From Alphaproteobacteria bacterium (GTDB lineage Bacteria; Pseudomonadota; Alphaproteobacteria; SP197): a stretch of 64,000 nucleotides of DNA. The stretch is taken from the NCBI GenBank assembly GCA_965207785.1, contig CBDBNO010000012.1, forward strand, positions 99,293 through 163,292, written 5' to 3'. Under the pieces are notes generated by a model. It did no database searches. It saw only the letters and a program-made list of their open reading frames with translations, and was not told the DNA's origin. Positions 35,365 to 45,391 of the stretch are shown piece after piece. How positions within the stretch are numbered: position 1 is the first letter of the stretch; every line of letters begins with the position of its first letter. A program made the translations under genes and the position numbers.

Positions 35365-36879
35365 TCATCCGAACATCGAGAAGAATGGATCTTCGTCGGG
35401 CACGTACTGCTTGTACTCCGGATTGCGCACGAGGTTCACGCCAAGGCGCTGGAGCCACCATGCCTGGATCATCGGCCATTCGCGTACGAAGAAGACATCG
35501 TGATTCTCGTCACACACTGCCAGGCGGATGTAGTGGGCGCAGTGATGGGTCCCCGGTTCGAGGAAGACCGCACCTTCCGGCGCCTCGATGGCCCATCCCA
35601 GTTCCAGCGCCCTCTTGACGGTCTCCTGGTCGGTGGTTCCGGCAAGACGGGCCGCCTGGGCGTACATGTGCACCGTGAAGTAGGTGTTCTGCGCCATTTC
35701 GCCGATGTACTCGTCCTCCGGGAACATATCCATCCACCGCTTGACGAAGGCCCGGTTACGGGCGGTCGGCACCTCGAGCTGGTACTGGATGGCGTTGTGC
35801 ATCTGGTTCAGGGATGGCGGGGGGAACCGCTTGTGTTCATAGCCCTGCGCCATGTTGACCGTCGACGCCATCGGATAGCTCAGTCCGGCGGCCGCTGCCT
35901 GCGGATAGTAGTTGTGGTGGTTCTGACCCACCAGGAGGGTCATGACCCAGTCCGGCTTGGCCTGCTGGATGCGGGCGATCACCTGACTGAATTCGGACAC
36001 GGACAGCGGAATGAATTCCTCACCGATGATCTCGCCGCCAACAAGCGGAGCGAAGGCCTTGGTCCAGGCTGCGGTGAGCTGGCCGAAATTGTAGTCCGCC
36101 GCGATCGTGTAGCAGCGTGGTCCGAACTTCTCGACCATGTACTGCACGACGGGAATGACCTGCTGCTCGCAGACCGGCCCGGTGCAGAACGTGTTGGCAT
36201 CGGCCACACCACCCTCGTACTGGTTGGTGTAGAAGTAGAGCTGGTTGAACTGGTCGACGATCGGCCTGATCGCCTCGCGCTCGGCGCTGGCAAAACCGGC
36301 AACGAGGACATCGACCTCGTCTTCCTGGATCAGCCGGCGGGTCAGCTGCTGCCACAGCGCATTGTTGCTCTGGCCATCGACCGACACCAGGTCGACCTCG
36401 CGGCCGAGAATGCCCTGATCGCCCGAGTCGACGAAGACATCGTCGTCCTCGACGAAGACTGTCGCGTCACCGGACATATCGCCGCCGGCATTGACGATAT
36501 CGAGCGCCACGCCCTCCTTGCTGATGGTCGGCGCGTTGGCTGCATAGGATGCAATTGGTCCGTAACCGCCGGTGCCGATGTTGGCGCCGCCCTTGAGGGT
36601 CTTGCCTTCGTTGATTTCCTTCACGGCCAGCTGCGCGGCGTGCAGTTTCTGAATGCCATAGACGGACAGGTTGCCTGATTCGTCCTCAATGAAGCCGATC
36701 TTGACGGGACTGCCGTCCTGCGCCTTCGCCTTCTTGAGATTGGGCAGCACGGTTGCCGCCGACACGGCTGCAGCAGTGCCTGTGAGAAAGTCGCGCCGGC
36801 CTACGCTGAATCCGGTGTCTTCTGTCGCTGGTGTTGTCGCGTCCTGCGGGACCTCCGCTTGACTGTCACGTTTACTCAT
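35365..36879 (-). CDS. urea/amide ABC transporter substrate-binding protein (UrtA/AmiC-like), Tat-exported
   Basis: GRRDFL twin-arginine signal; AGFASAEREAIRP, LYFYTNQYEGGV, IAADYNFGQ. Confidence 0.9.
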   Translation of the reverse strand: MSKRDSQAEVPQDATTPATEDTGFSVGRRDFLTGTAAAVSAATVLPNLKKAKAQDGSPVKIGFIEDESGNLSVYGIQKLHAAQLAVKEINEGKTLKGGANIGTGGYGPIASYAANAPTISKEGVALDIVNAGGDMSGDATVFVEDDDVFVDSGDQGILGREVDLVSVDGQSNNALWQQLTRRLIQEDEVDVLVAGFASAEREAIRPIVDQFNQLYFYTNQYEGGVADANTFCTGPVCEQQVIPVVQYMVEKFGPRCYTIAADYNFGQLTAAWTKAFAPLVGGEIIGEEFIPLSVSEFSQVIARIQQAKPDWVMTLLVGQNHHNYYPQAAAAGLSYPMASTVNMAQGYEHKRFPPPSLNQMHNAIQYQLEVPTARNRAFVKRWMDMFPEDEYIGEMAQNTYFTVHMYAQAARLAGTTDQETVKRALELGWAIEAPEGAVFLEPGTHHCAHYIRLAVCDENHDVFFVREWPMIQAWWLQRLGVNLVRNPEYKQYVPDEDPFFSMFG

Positions 36880-37219
36880 TGTTCCTCCTCGTCTGAATCA
36901 GGGGCCCATCAACTTGGCGTCGATGGCGAGAACCTCCTGACGACTCGATTGAATACAATTTCCGGAAGGTCGGCAAGCAAACAAACCCGCCACATCTCCT
37001 GCCGCGTACTACCGAACGGCAGACGGTCTCGCACTGCCTACCATGGCACCGGGGAATGGTGCGTTCATCTCATGTGTCTCGGACAATGCACCCGACAGGC
37101 GCCGACGCCGGAGACGCTGGTGGCGATGTTGAGCCAGGACTGGCACCATTCCTGGACCGAGTCGGCGCCATGCCCGTGGTCCCGGCGGCCAGATGAGCGT
37201 GTTCACCAGGCGACGTGAA

Positions 37220-42400: not shown

Positions 42401-42850
42401 ATGAAGCGCATCGTCGTGATCCTTGCGGTTCTCTTCTCCATGGCGCCGGCGCTGGCAGGCGGCGTCACCGGCCTCCTTTCCGCCACCGACGTCAAGATCG
42501 AGGCCTACGTGAACCAGGGAAGGGCACTTGCCATCGCCCTTCTGCCGCCTCCCGACGTGACACTCTCCGGCACACTAGGTGTCGCCTTCGCCCCGGCGAA
42601 TGACAGCCAGCCATGGACGGGTGAACTGCCACGGGTGGTGACGGCGGACGCTGATTACTTCAATAGCCCGATTCTGGAAACATTCCCCTTCGACCGCGGC
42701 CGCCTTCGCCAGCCGGCTGCCCTTGCCGTCACCTTCGGCGCCTGTTTCAGCGAAGCCCGAATCTGCGTCCTCGAGGAAGCCCTGGTCACGATCAGCCCGG
42801 CCACGGACGGGGATGTGAATGTCGCCATCGTCCTGACCGGCGGACCATGA
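42401..42850 (+). CDS. exported protein, possibly with a DsbD N-terminal-like domain
   Basis: Signal peptide MKRIVVILAVLFSMAPALA; beta-rich; C-terminal GACFSEARICVLEE Cys pair. Confidence 0.6.
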   Translation: MKRIVVILAVLFSMAPALAGGVTGLLSATDVKIEAYVNQGRALAIALLPPPDVTLSGTLGVAFAPANDSQPWTGELPRVVTADADYFNSPILETFPFDRGRLRQPAALAVTFGACFSEARICVLEEALVTISPATDGDVNVAIVLTGGP

Positions 42851-43429
42851 TTGGCGGTTCATCCGGCAGAGTCCGGGATCCTTCGAGTGAGCTGCGACCC
42901 TCAGCCAAACCGGATGTACGGAAATGAAGACTCCTGTTCACCGGTACTGTTCGCTGAGAACGGAAATCAACGGTAATGAGTAGGCTCTCCATGTCGTCAG
43001 AACTCAGCCAGGCAATCCTGCTCGCCAAACCTCGACCTTCCCGAGAGGCGACGCCAACACGATCAGGAGAATGCTGAACTCTCTCTTCGATGGGGACTGG
43101 ACTCGGGTCGGGGACGGCGATCGGTGATCGAAGAGTAGCAGCCGCGCCAAGAGGAAATCGGGCGTCCGAGTAAGGCGGGAGTGAAGGCAGACTTGAGGGC
43201 TGAGGAGAGTTTCGGGGAAGCCGTGGACGCGATCGTCCAGCCCGTCCACATCCACTGCATCAATCGTCCAGGTCAGGTCGCCAGGCGGCGCTCGGCACTT
43301 TTCTGTATCATCCCCAAACGCGAGACAGACAGGCGGAACCCGCATTCGTAGGGAAAGAACACGGATGCGGATTCACGGGCCTGGAAGAGCCGAGATGAGG
43401 GTCAAACGATCAAAGTACAACGGTGGCCC

Positions 43430-44053
43430 TTACCAAGCTGCTGGCTTCCTGATGTTCGTCCCAGGGATCGGATCCGGAAGCTGCGAGTTCTGCAGGTAGC
43501 TGGATCGGATCGGGCGCAAGAAATCGGCGTGCGCCACGAGCTGTTGCGACAGCCGCCCGGTGCCCGGTTTCACCAGGCCTATGCGTTTCCCGTGACGGTG
43601 GCGCACAAGGCGCATGGCCTCCGCCAGGTCGCTGTCGTTGCTCATGATAACCGCGCAGTCATAGGCATCGAGCCCAGCGTCGTTCAGGAGATGCACCGCG
43701 AGATTGACGTCCGTGCCCTTTTCCTCGGTTTTGAAAACCTCAACCATGCGCTGATCGCCGATCGGCCGAACCAGCGGCATCCACACCCTATGGGTGAGAA
43801 AGTGGCCGAAGTGCACCTCGATCTCGGGCCGGGTGGCACGCAGCGCACGCAGATAGCTGTCCTGCCGATGCGGCTTCGTCGGGTCCCGGACTGTTTCCGA
43901 GACCTTCGCTGTGAAGTATCGAAGCGTCACGATCTGATGATGCGACTGGAGCACTCTTCCGGCCAGAGCGACCAGGTCCAACCACTTCCACGGCGTTTTT
44001 CTGAGCGCCCCGTAGTAGAGATTGAACCCGTCAACGTAAACGAATGTGCGCAT
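43430..44053 (-). CDS. NYN-domain (LabA/DUF88-like PIN fold) putative ribonuclease
   Basis: VYVDGFNLYY, RYFTA, EEKGTDVNLA, SNDSDL; acidic metal-binding residues intact. Confidence 0.92.
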   Translation of the reverse strand: MRTFVYVDGFNLYYGALRKTPWKWLDLVALAGRVLQSHHQIVTLRYFTAKVSETVRDPTKPHRQDSYLRALRATRPEIEVHFGHFLTHRVWMPLVRPIGDQRMVEVFKTEEKGTDVNLAVHLLNDAGLDAYDCAVIMSNDSDLAEAMRLVRHRHGKRIGLVKPGTGRLSQQLVAHADFLRPIRSSYLQNSQLPDPIPGTNIRKPAAW

Positions 44054-44064
44054 CGCAAGCCGCC

Positions 44065-44094
44065 AAAAAGCAGGGGCCGCCGAAGCGACCCCGC
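44065..44094 (-). terminator. intrinsic terminator directly upstream of the NYN gene
   Basis: Minus strand GCGGGGUCGC-UUCG-GCGGCCCCUGC-UUUUU: GC stem, cUUCGg loop, U tract, 11 nt before the ATG. Confidence 0.75.
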
Positions 44095-44125
44095 GCCCTG
44101 CAGTCGAAGCCACAGGGGTGACTGC
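44065..44125 (-). ncRNA. candidate ~60-nt structured leader / antitoxin-like RNA
   Basis: GCAGUCACCCCUGUGGCUUCGACUGCAGGGCGCGGGGUCGCUUCGGCGGCCCCUGCUUUUU between promoter and ORF; two hairpins or a pseudoknot plus terminator. Confidence 0.5.
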
Positions 44126-44129
44126 TCAA

Positions 44130-44158
44130 GATGTAGGTCCATTGCGAAGTGGTGTCAA
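44130..44158 (-). promoter_or_regulatory. sigma70-like promoter TTGACA-N17-TACATC
   Basis: Perfect -35 (44153-44158), 17-nt spacer, -10 TACATC (44130-44135) lacking T-7, which is common in alphaproteobacteria. Confidence 0.65.
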
Positions 44159-44212: not shown

Positions 44213-45193
44213 TCATTCTTCGATGATCAGTCCGGACATTCTCGCCCAGACTCTTCGGGCGGCATCAGCACTAAAGTCATCGAAGAACAGCCAATCGTCG
44301 GCATCTAATGGCATGTCCAGAATCCAGAACGCCTTGCTCTTGCGCCATCGATCTCGCCCATTCCAGTTCGGCGGACAATTCTCGTAGCACCCTGTCTGCG
44401 GAACATGAACCGCCATGTTCTGCTGAAAGAAACGATCCTGGTCGCCCTTTGTCCGGTTACAGATCTTGTGGATAACCTCAACGCCCGGAACAGTGACTCT
44501 CCCTAGACGACACCTTCGTGGATGGAATTCGAACCACCGCTGACTCGAATCAAACAGTTTCTTGTTGTTTCCCGAAAGACAGTCATAGAGACGTCTGTGT
44601 TCTTCCCGAAGAAGATCGGAGTAACGTACGCGAAACCCGCCGATCAATTCATCCGGATTCCTGGCTGTTCCGGAATGGCCATGCCGCGCGATGCCGGCGT
44701 CCAGAAAGGATGCCAGGTCATTGAGGCCGTTGGTCTTGGCCGAGTCCCGAACCTCCTCATAGCTCAACTTGACCTCGTACTTTCCTGCGCTCGACGCCCG
44801 GTCCAGATAGCCTTTCGGGGCCATGAGAACCGTGGTTCCTCGCCTCCACATTCTCTGCGATTCCCCCCAACGGGCGTAGGCAGAGTAGTCTTCGGGTTGA
44901 TTCTCGCTGGCCGGTGCGATGACCTTGCTCTCGGTCAGGATGGCGTAGTGAACTCCATGAACATCCTTGGCAACAACGTGCAGATCCGTTTCCCGTGCCG
45001 CTTTGCTTTGTGCGGACCGGGACTCTTCTTCCCGCGTAAAGTTGGGTCTGATCTCCACCAATTCGCCCAGCCTCACTGTCGGCAGAATTCGCCCGACCCA
45101 CCACTCCGCGAAACTCCGGTTTGAGCGCAAACCTTCGGCCAGCCGATGGTCGATATCCGGTTCCTGCATGGTGCGCCAGAGTTCATGGTCCAT
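44213..45193 (-). CDS. PD-(D/E)XK nuclease superfamily protein
   Basis: RETDLHVV...YAILTESKVIAPASENQPEDY...VLMAPKGYL resembles PDDEXK_4-like D...ExK...Q..Y motifs; codon usage differs from the flanking genes. Confidence 0.7.
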   Translation of the reverse strand: MDHELWRTMQEPDIDHRLAEGLRSNRSFAEWWVGRILPTVRLGELVEIRPNFTREEESRSAQSKAARETDLHVVAKDVHGVHYAILTESKVIAPASENQPEDYSAYARWGESQRMWRRGTTVLMAPKGYLDRASSAGKYEVKLSYEEVRDSAKTNGLNDLASFLDAGIARHGHSGTARNPDELIGGFRVRYSDLLREEHRRLYDCLSGNNKKLFDSSQRWFEFHPRRCRLGRVTVPGVEVIHKICNRTKGDQDRFFQQNMAVHVPQTGCYENCPPNWNGRDRWRKSKAFWILDMPLDADDWLFFDDFSADAARRVWARMSGLIIEE

Positions 45194-45391
45194 CGTTGAA
45201 TGCTCCAGCGCTGCAGTACTTCCGCCGGGAACCCGATGAGGCCTGGCTGGTCGACGTACAGGGCCATCGGCTGCCGGGCATGGATCGCTCGCAGGTCTCC
45301 TCAAACTCTACCGAGAAACTCGCCGGTGACCATGTACGACCGCTGTCGGCAGGTTGAGGCGCCGACCGTGATCGACACCATTGACGCATCC

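Follow-up and report, generated by a model that had tools for sequence, protein, structure and literature searches.

In the 64,000-nucleotide stretch of an alphaproteobacterial genome analysed here (contig CBDBNO010000012.1, positions 99,293 to 163,292; assembly GCA_965207785.1), referred to below in its full length as the window, a small structured RNA of ~59 nt, counted from its predicted start to its U tract, lies between a promoter and the gene for a 207-aa NYN-domain protein. The same RNA accompanies genes of this protein family in many bacterial phyla, in two different gene orders. We put it at roughly even odds (a probability of about 0.5) that the small RNA binds and restrains the NYN protein, a putative ribonuclease, in which case the two would make up a toxin-antitoxin or abortive-infection module of type III-like character, novel in both the fold of its toxin and its RNA; this reading rests on comparative sequence analysis. 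An RNA-antitoxin system had been suggested at this place by a first-pass annotation made from the letters of the window alone.

The loci compared were gathered by protein similarity alone, from related genomes (12 of 61) and from contigs representing one genome per species (the best 80 of 552 confirmed stretches). The upstream DNA of most of them shows a shared element, consisting of a promoter, A/U, a C-run, hairpin 1 with a UUCG-type loop, GGG and Y, and continuing with GCG, hairpin 2, C-U-GC and a U tract. RNAalifold, applied to a plain MAFFT alignment of 67 leaders, recovers both hairpins, with compensatory changes in 15 of 15 pairs. A covariance model of the element (R1; 64 positions, 20 pairs) has a single match in the window, over the full model (68.5 bits, E 3e-20), and the window RNA is the only strong match in its own 4.79-Mb genome. 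The 80 loci span many phyla, including Pseudomonadota, Bacteroidota, Chloroflexota, Planctomycetota, Acidobacteriota and Saccharimonadota; R1 adjoins the NYN gene in 72 of them at E <= 1e-3 (68 as a leader and 4 convergent with the gene) and in 77 at E <= 1, with the leader arrangement then found in 73. The full two-hairpin model scores 45-77 bits across phyla, and the window and most loci hold one R1 unit. Eight of the 80 loci lack a strong R1 match: contig ends truncate L044 and L067, L088 has another kind of leader, and the other five carry a visibly related leader that we call type B (L078, L092, L093, L097, L100). On inspection of the 80 loci, every full-length NYN gene that could be assessed was seen with some form of leader.

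Covariation was measured on an alignment fitted to R1 (A3, 92 rows). The modelled partners can pair in 91.7% of cells, compared with 72.8% in shuffled alignments; 19 of the 20 pairs change on both sides (14.8 in shuffles), and the 333 compensatory cells (96.6 in shuffles) are reached by none of 500 shuffles. Slid partners reach a covariation score of at most 0.149, compared with 0.554 for the modelled ones. Helix 1 shows changes on both sides in 9 of 9 pairs, with 86% of cells pairing, and all nine pairs of helix 3, which forms hairpin 2, covary (97.9% of cells pair). Other positions are nearly constant: the CCC/GGG base of hairpin 1 is 92-99% conserved (C columns 7 and 8, 92% and 97%; G column 47, 99%), the closing G and C of hairpin 2 are conserved at 94% and 93%, a bulged U at 90%, and the U tract has U at 80-94% in alignment columns 110-114. 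Hairpin 1, the CCC/GGG base, the closing pair and the conserved bulged U are all dispensable for a plain terminator. The first-pass annotation had named a lack of conserved structure upstream of homologs as what would speak against its proposal; hairpins, flanks and promoter are conserved there across phyla, with covariation. It had also pointed to a comparison with Rfam, in which no family, abiF included, matches the RNA: Rfam 15 returns nothing at E <= 10 between positions 42800 and 44800 of the window, and in 16 homologous loci there is no match to the motif at E <= 1, only sub-threshold chance matches, two of which touch hairpin 2. The RNA family is absent from Rfam 15.

Alternative pairings fared differently. 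The H-type pseudoknot proposed in the first pass, with its stem GCAGUC/GACUGC, is not conserved, as 44.6% of cells pair, compared with 47.1% in shuffles. An antiterminator formed by the 5' C-run with the hairpin 2 G-run was rejected as well: its cells pair at 71.4% (70.9% in shuffles), and 77 of 500 shuffles attain its covariation score. With no covariation in the pairings that a switch would require, and with a stable tetraloop on each hairpin, the RNA resembles a rigid body of two helices joined at a conserved junction, as expected of a protein-binding RNA.

In a second gene order, seen in Actinomycetota-type loci and on two mobile elements, the RNA is convergent with the NYN gene. At L081, L098, L099 and L102, whose hosts belong to the Acidimicrobiales, Tepidiformaceae, Acidimicrobiia and Pseudonocardiaceae, the last NYN codon is followed within 0-2 nt by the RNA on the opposite strand, and the L098 copy has its own promoter match (10/12). 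The convergent order is also found in the Mycobacterium prophage prophiGD43A-1 (56.4 bits), where the NYN gene sits between the integrase and the immunity repressor, and on a Paenarthrobacter plasmid (55.1 bits). A search with the RNA alone of 151 genomes from the class Acidimicrobiia, that of L081, gave matches in 7 genomes; five of the six new places are convergent with an NYN gene and one has no NYN gene within the locus. This brings the convergent order to at least 10 loci, among which the stems still differ by compensatory changes while both hairpins and the conserved junction are kept. Since L081, L098 and L099 form a supported clade on a quick protein tree (SH-aLRT 99), with L102 nearby, the order could have a single origin; the L102 genome is flagged as unpublished, and the conclusion on the second gene order is independent of it. 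As this order places the RNA on the other strand past the NYN stop, the RNA appears to be more than an attenuator. Judged from the loci compared, the convergent order shows an incompatibility with a purely cis-acting leader, and indicates that the RNA gene itself is under selection beside NYN.

The promoter is likewise a property of the family of loci. Within the windows upstream of the motif, the best match to TTGACA-N16-18-TATAAT reaches at least 9/12 in 52 of 88, compared with 2 of 88 controls taken 300 nt further upstream. In these 88 windows the -10 box mostly ends 5-8 nt before position 1 of the R1 model, and therefore the primary transcript should start at the motif. The NYN start codon mostly follows 4-21 nt past the end of the model, which leaves no space for a second promoter; therefore, in the leader order, NYN would be made only by read-through. 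The genes upstream of the module vary between loci, whereas the promoter, hairpin 1 and junction sequence are kept. An explanation in which the element is only the terminator of the upstream gene is weakened because these genes differ and because a promoter sits between the upstream gene and the RNA; together with the 10 or more convergent loci, the same facts weaken the fallback offered in the first pass, a simple attenuator or upstream terminator.

The association also holds when it is approached from the RNA. In an RNA-only search of 151 genomes from the window's class, 12 of the 15 places that score at least 33 bits adjoin an NYN gene or its remnant; the places without NYN are L107 (77 bits), L111 (50 bits) and L114 (34 bits), and L107 and L111 retain a promoter-like site despite its absence. 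All listed places below 31 bits lack NYN and are probably chance terminators. Decay of the protein gene beside an intact RNA is recurrent: NYN frames stop early, with the tblastn alignment continuing, in L039, L045, L049, L096 and L106, broken NYN genes also occur in related genomes (L006, L008, L014, L016), and the RNA is retained beside an NYN fragment in L009, L127, L014 and L077. Only in one genome does NYN follow two copies of the promoter-plus-RNA unit, spaced 211 nt apart, an arrangement present on two contigs. As a separate observation, the orphan RNA of L111 (G145:C1, near 36841-36907; 50.5 bits, with a TTGACA promoter and no NYN gene within 1.5 kb) lies ~250 nt upstream of a long ORF whose start looks, by eye, like a Cas3-type HD domain.

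The protein of the window matches Pfam PF01936 (NYN) over residues 2-176 with 41 bits (gathering cut-off 24.2; E 3.5e-10). It matches the PADLOC HEC-09 model PDLC04163 at full length (E 3.8e-44; residues 2-207 on profile positions 3-202 of 203), and phrog_7929 with E 4e-56. An AlphaFold2 model built on 82 homologs has a pLDDT of 96.8. A sequence search of the PDB with the protein returned no match; the top PDB matches of the model in Foldseek are 2qip (E 4e-8) and the MARF1 NYN domains 5yaa and 6fdl (E ~2e-6), so that, on this model, the protein has the NYN/PIN-like fold. The motifs DGFN, EEKGTD and SNDSD are all present, and D8, E111, K112, D115, D140 and D142 are invariant in the 82 homologs, which bears out the earlier description of an NYN protein with intact acidic residues. 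By the analogy with MARF1 that has been stated for HEC-09, these acidic residues form a putative metal-binding active site, and the protein is a putative ribonuclease. The start at ATG 44053 agrees with the commonest length of homologs, ~207 aa in most of the 120 matches listed, and the family holds at least 5,477 cluster representatives at E <= 1e-3. Compared with solved NYN domains (~150 residues), the model has an additional long beta-hairpin (strands 84-98 and 101-112) and a confidently placed C-terminal tail (residues ~190-207) that ends in the nearly invariant K203-P204-x-x-W207. Either the beta-hairpin (~84-112) or the tail could be the RNA-binding part.

Members of the family are carried on mobile elements. 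They were found in 454 plasmid records, of which 207 are from Klebsiella, 61 from Xanthomonas and 47 from Escherichia; some of these plasmids measure 3.4-5.7 kb. One of 3,461 bp, which 4 of 5,426 complete E. coli genomes contain, is an E. coli plasmid with the leader form (R1, 28.5 bits). Sixteen further plasmid loci were sampled with R1, which matches beside NYN at E <= 1e-3 in five (L145, L152, L141, L151, L138) and more weakly in four (L147, L139, L142, L150), with L144 matching hairpin 2 only. The protein tree, a quick IQ-TREE analysis from which rows shorter than 195 aa and L131 and L133 were left out, mixes phyla, placing for example Desulfatiglandaceae beside Oscillospiraceae and Gammaproteobacteria beside Bryobacterales. 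RNA subtypes cluster on this tree, suggesting that RNA and protein travel together.

Several variants of the RNA deserve description. The type B leader consists of ACCC, the hairpin GCCGGCAG-CGUG-CUGUCGGC, UCAA and a terminator hairpin, and its 5' CCC has no adjacent GGG partner. It is found in L007, L008, L014, L016, L052, L078, L086, L092, L093, L097, L100, L137 and L151, scores 12-24 bits with R1, and belongs to one NYN clade (SH-aLRT 99), several proteins of which have an insertion of ~50 aa. Another subtype (L064, L066, L072, L076, L082, L084, L089, L101) has GGUAGC-UUCG-GCGAAAGG as hairpin 1, whose tandem purine mismatches resemble an internal loop of the kink-turn or loop-E type. It clusters on the NYN tree, and its hosts include Verrucomicrobiota, Armatimonadota, Chloroflexota, Bacillota and Thermodesulfobacteriota. 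Enterobacterial, Xanthomonas and Pseudomonas variants of the leader were recognised by eye and have weak R1 scores.

At the window locus itself (Table 1), direct reading confirms the promoter given in the first-pass annotation, TTGACA-N17-TACATC on the minus strand at 44158-44130, and the two hairpins, UUUUU and 11 nt to the ATG are all where it had placed them. As the -10 box ends 6 nt before R1 model position 1, we predict transcription to start at ~44123. A terminator scan picks up hairpin 2 as 44092..44073. The statement that the NYN gene has no Shine-Dalgarno sequence can be questioned, since GGCGG is found 7-11 nt ahead of the ATG, where many homologs carry GGAGG or GGGGG. A role for the C-run in masking a Shine-Dalgarno sequence was considered and dropped; the NYN starts of the convergent loci look, by eye, leaderless or devoid of such a sequence.

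Table 1. Elements of the RNA-NYN locus in the window
Feature	Position	Strand	Basis or remark
-35 box TTGACA	44153..44158	(-)	Read directly; MAFFT aligns the box among homologous loci
-10 box TACATC, 17-nt spacer, degenerate final base	44130..44135	(-)	Scores 9/12 against the consensus
Small structured RNA (5' tail, C-run, hairpin 1, one-base linker, hairpin 2, U tract)	44063..44123	(-)	cmsearch with R1
Hairpin 1, CCCUGUGG / CUGCAGGG, loop CUUCGA, conserved CCC/GGG base	44096..44117	(-)	44117-44110 pairs with 44103-44096
Single C linker between hairpins 1 and 2			
Hairpin 2, terminator-like, GC-GGGGUCGC (UUCG) GCGGCCCC-U-GC	44070..44094	(-)	44094-44085 pairs with 44080-44070
Conserved bulged U of hairpin 2	44072	(-)	
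U tract UUUUU after hairpin 2	44065..44069	(-)	
11-nt spacer GGCGGCUUGCG		(-)	Between the U tract and the NYN ATG at 44053
NYN-domain protein gene, 207 aa, HEC-09 family, putative RNase	43430..44053	(-)	

The ORF directly upstream of the module in the window (44213-45304, minus strand) matches no family in Pfam, PADLOC, NCBIfam or PHROG. The ESM Atlas clusters nearest to it (score 0.97) are PD-(D/E)xK nucleases of a PDDEXK_4-like type, which is a lead only, and just the closest relatives (L002, L003) have it next to NYN. It may encode a second nuclease, within a small defence-like islet between a prfC-like and an acyl-CoA dehydrogenase-like gene. The ~570 nt past the NYN stop (42860-43430) hold only short ORFs without family matches, such as 43004-43345 (minus strand), and may be a remnant of the inserted islet. 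PADLOC gave no match for two neighbouring ORFs, the only neighbours examined, and embedding in an Hma system was not seen there. Elsewhere in the family, some members (plasmid matches H33, H38, H50 and H54) are annotated as '6-hydroxy-3-succinoylpyridine 3-monooxygenase HspA/nicB'. According to one review, HspA was assigned by gene location and is not induced by nicotine, and HspB is the characterised FAD enzyme for the step (PMC6122326). The label '6-hydroxy-3-succinoylpyridine monooxygenase HspA' on NYN-family members thus looks doubtful, and is probably an inherited mis-annotation.

The reading we prefer is that of a two-part mobile module, composed of a strongly transcribed two-hairpin RNA of ~60 nt and a 207-aa NYN-fold ribonuclease. 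The promoter would fire ~6 nt past the -10 box, and most transcripts would end at hairpin 2, giving a free small RNA; occasional read-through would yield an NYN mRNA with the RNA as its leader. The RNA may bind NYN through its junction, that is, the CCC/GGG base, the Y linker and the GCG...C-U-GC base of hairpin 2, and the nuclease so bound would stay inactive. Loss of the RNA, perhaps by phage shut-off of host transcription or by loss of the plasmid, would free the nuclease. What the analysis shows is how the locus is built, that the RNA is conserved and covaries, that it is strictly linked to NYN in two gene orders, and that a promoter signal and the NYN fold are present; a discrete transcript, RNA-protein binding, inhibition, toxicity and a role in defence or addiction are inferred. 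Strong predicted transcription, an RNA excess set by the terminator and linkage in two gene orders would fit restraint of a nuclease, as would the RNA outlasting decay of NYN and the carriage of the module on small plasmids and in prophage.

The arrangement has parallels among known systems. Type III systems (ToxIN/AbiQ, CptIN, TenpIN) likewise have one promoter, a structured RNA, a terminator and an endoribonuclease gene (in part after PMC3475682, as far as that source was available); here RNA and NYN lie under one promoter with the terminator between them in 68 of the 80 loci at E <= 1e-3. Further likenesses are an excess of RNA over protein, predicted in the present case, carriage on plasmids and prophages, and the proposed role in abortive infection or addiction. 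The closest precedent for the mechanism that we propose is AbiF with RCd22, an RNA carrying abiF motifs, in a Clostridioides difficile prophage, where, in the portion of the literature available on it, a conserved RNA upstream of an Abi nuclease gene is an RNA antitoxin in cis and in trans. The likeness lies in a conserved RNA motif beside an Abi-type nuclease gene; the protein differs, being an Abi_2/AbiD/F protein structurally tied to ancestral Cas13 rather than an NYN protein, and so does the RNA family. In AvcID, a type III-like RNA antitoxin is paired with a toxin of a quite different fold, although that toxin is a deoxycytidylate deaminase and not an RNase, and its RNA is unrelated (PMC10511110, from the part available). 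For the protein, the relevant precedent is HEC-09, a PADLOC candidate embedded in Hma systems that resembles the MARF1 NYN domain, in the accessible part of its description (bioRxiv 10.1101/2024.01.29.577857). The window protein is a full-length match to the HEC-09 model, and its own model likewise resembles MARF1 NYN domains. As far as the available text of that paper goes, HEC-09 is treated as a lone protein, whereas we find an RNA partner; the terms 'non-coding' and 'ncRNA' are absent from its main text (bioRxiv 10.1101/2024.01.29.577857). No description of an RNA linked to NYN genes was found in the open-access literature searched. The occurrence of the pair in many phyla, on plasmids and in a prophage suggests that an RNA-plus-NYN-nuclease module may have gone unrecognised.

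A number of observations weigh against an inhibitory RNA. A HEC-09 construct with its putative native promoter region gave no protection in E. coli against the phages tested, and HEC-09 is not among the constructs named as apparently toxic, in the part of the paper available (bioRxiv 10.1101/2024.01.29.577857). Type III antitoxins are tandem repeats processed by the toxin, and here there is a single RNA unit; the fold is that of NYN (PIN-like) and not that of ToxN/AbiQ. Since there are no tandem repeats and no ToxN fold, the module stands outside the canonical type III families, from which it differs also in its two plain hairpins, with the pseudoknot not supported, and in the existence of a convergent order. 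Strict co-occurrence and strong predicted transcription of the RNA would equally fit an RNA that is an obligatory cofactor, and decayed NYN genes would equally fit the plain loss of a dispensable gene. In distant plasmid homologs (~30-36% identity) R1 matches are weak or absent, and six of the 16 sampled plasmid loci have none at E <= 0.1; by eye, L137, L140 and L143 among them show a C-run, a long hairpin and a terminator hairpin, the leader of L146 is ambiguous, and L148 and L149 show nothing convincing. At the window locus, a sigma-70 scan did not call the promoter, a strict scan rejecting TACATC because its position 6 is C. Two terminator-like sites were found in the window where 1.9 are expected from shuffles, and the single-sequence fold of the window RNA has z = -1.05, with 29 of 200 shuffles folding equally well; being no better than chance, the single-sequence scan and fold are not used as support. 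Finally, A3 was fitted to R1 and so favours the modelled pairs, although the MAFFT-based RNAalifold result agrees with it.

Regulation in cis is a possible, if unlikely, explanation for the whole arrangement: the RNA would be purely a leader that sets the level of NYN, either as an attenuator (constitutive or protein-controlled) or as an autoregulatory site that NYN binds or cuts. RNase III, RNase E and Regnase-1 are examples of RNases controlling their own mRNA by way of a stem-loop in the leader or UTR. The 68 loci in which the RNA is 5' of NYN and its terminator-like hairpin and U tract closely precede the start codon suit such a leader, as NYN would then be expressed only through read-through. 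The 10 or more convergent loci do not, since the RNA there mostly lies directly past the NYN stop, in some cases with its own promoter, and keeps its hairpins and junction. Neither does the failure of the C-run and the hairpin 2 G-run to covary as an antiterminator; moreover, the loops are stable tetraloops and not ligand pockets, and the RNAs of L107 and L111, which keep promoter-like sites, outlive the loss of NYN. For a riboswitch or switching attenuator in particular, the loci show no conserved alternative pairing, and the RNA is not always 5' on the same strand. A simpler proposal, that the element has no specific RNA function and either terminates the upstream gene or accompanies a mobile gene as an insulating cassette of hairpin and terminator, seems to us very improbable and is disfavoured. 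It can draw on the resemblance of hairpin 2 and its U tract to an ordinary intrinsic terminator, on terminator-like sites being as frequent in the window as in shuffles, and on the convergent loci, where hairpin 2, directly adjoining the NYN stop, might end transcription from both sides. Yet promoter, hairpin 1 and junction sequence persist while the upstream genes differ, hairpin 1, the CCC/GGG base and the bulged U would be superfluous, and it is the full two-hairpin model that scores so highly across phyla.

The RNA might instead serve the nuclease as an obligatory cofactor, scaffold or specificity element, so that the functional unit would be a ribonucleoprotein (RNP) enzyme and the RNA no inhibitor. 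We hold this to be distinctly improbable, although much of the evidence accommodates it: linkage is strict in both gene orders, an RNA excess is predicted from the strong promoter and terminator, the conserved helix junction and stable tetraloops suit a rigid protein-binding scaffold, and every assessable full-length NYN gene is seen with some form of leader. What speaks against it is that no obviously variable single-stranded 'guide' segment is present, the variation being in paired stems and compensatory, and that orphan RNAs and duplicated RNA units are more typical of antidotes, although compatible with a cofactor. We give equally little credence to an extended version, in which an obligatory RNP has spread horizontally through most phyla, plasmids and prophages, and the RNA is its sensing or specificity part, perhaps a decoy for a phage factor or a scaffold that positions the substrate. 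If true, the RNP reading would establish a new class of RNA-dependent immune or addiction nuclease on the PIN-like/NYN fold.

The two gene orders, leader and convergent, amount to a natural experiment that separates action in cis from action in trans, and the tiny natural E. coli plasmids that carry the module make it readily testable. If the small RNA does restrain the NYN nuclease, a widespread structured RNA family would be added beside the 5,477 or more protein cluster representatives and 454 plasmid records of this family, and the RNA partner could explain both the carriage of HEC-09 and its lack of defence in a heterologous test. The range of RNA-antitoxin (type III-like) systems would then include the PIN-like/NYN fold as well as an RNA made of a single unit with two hairpins.

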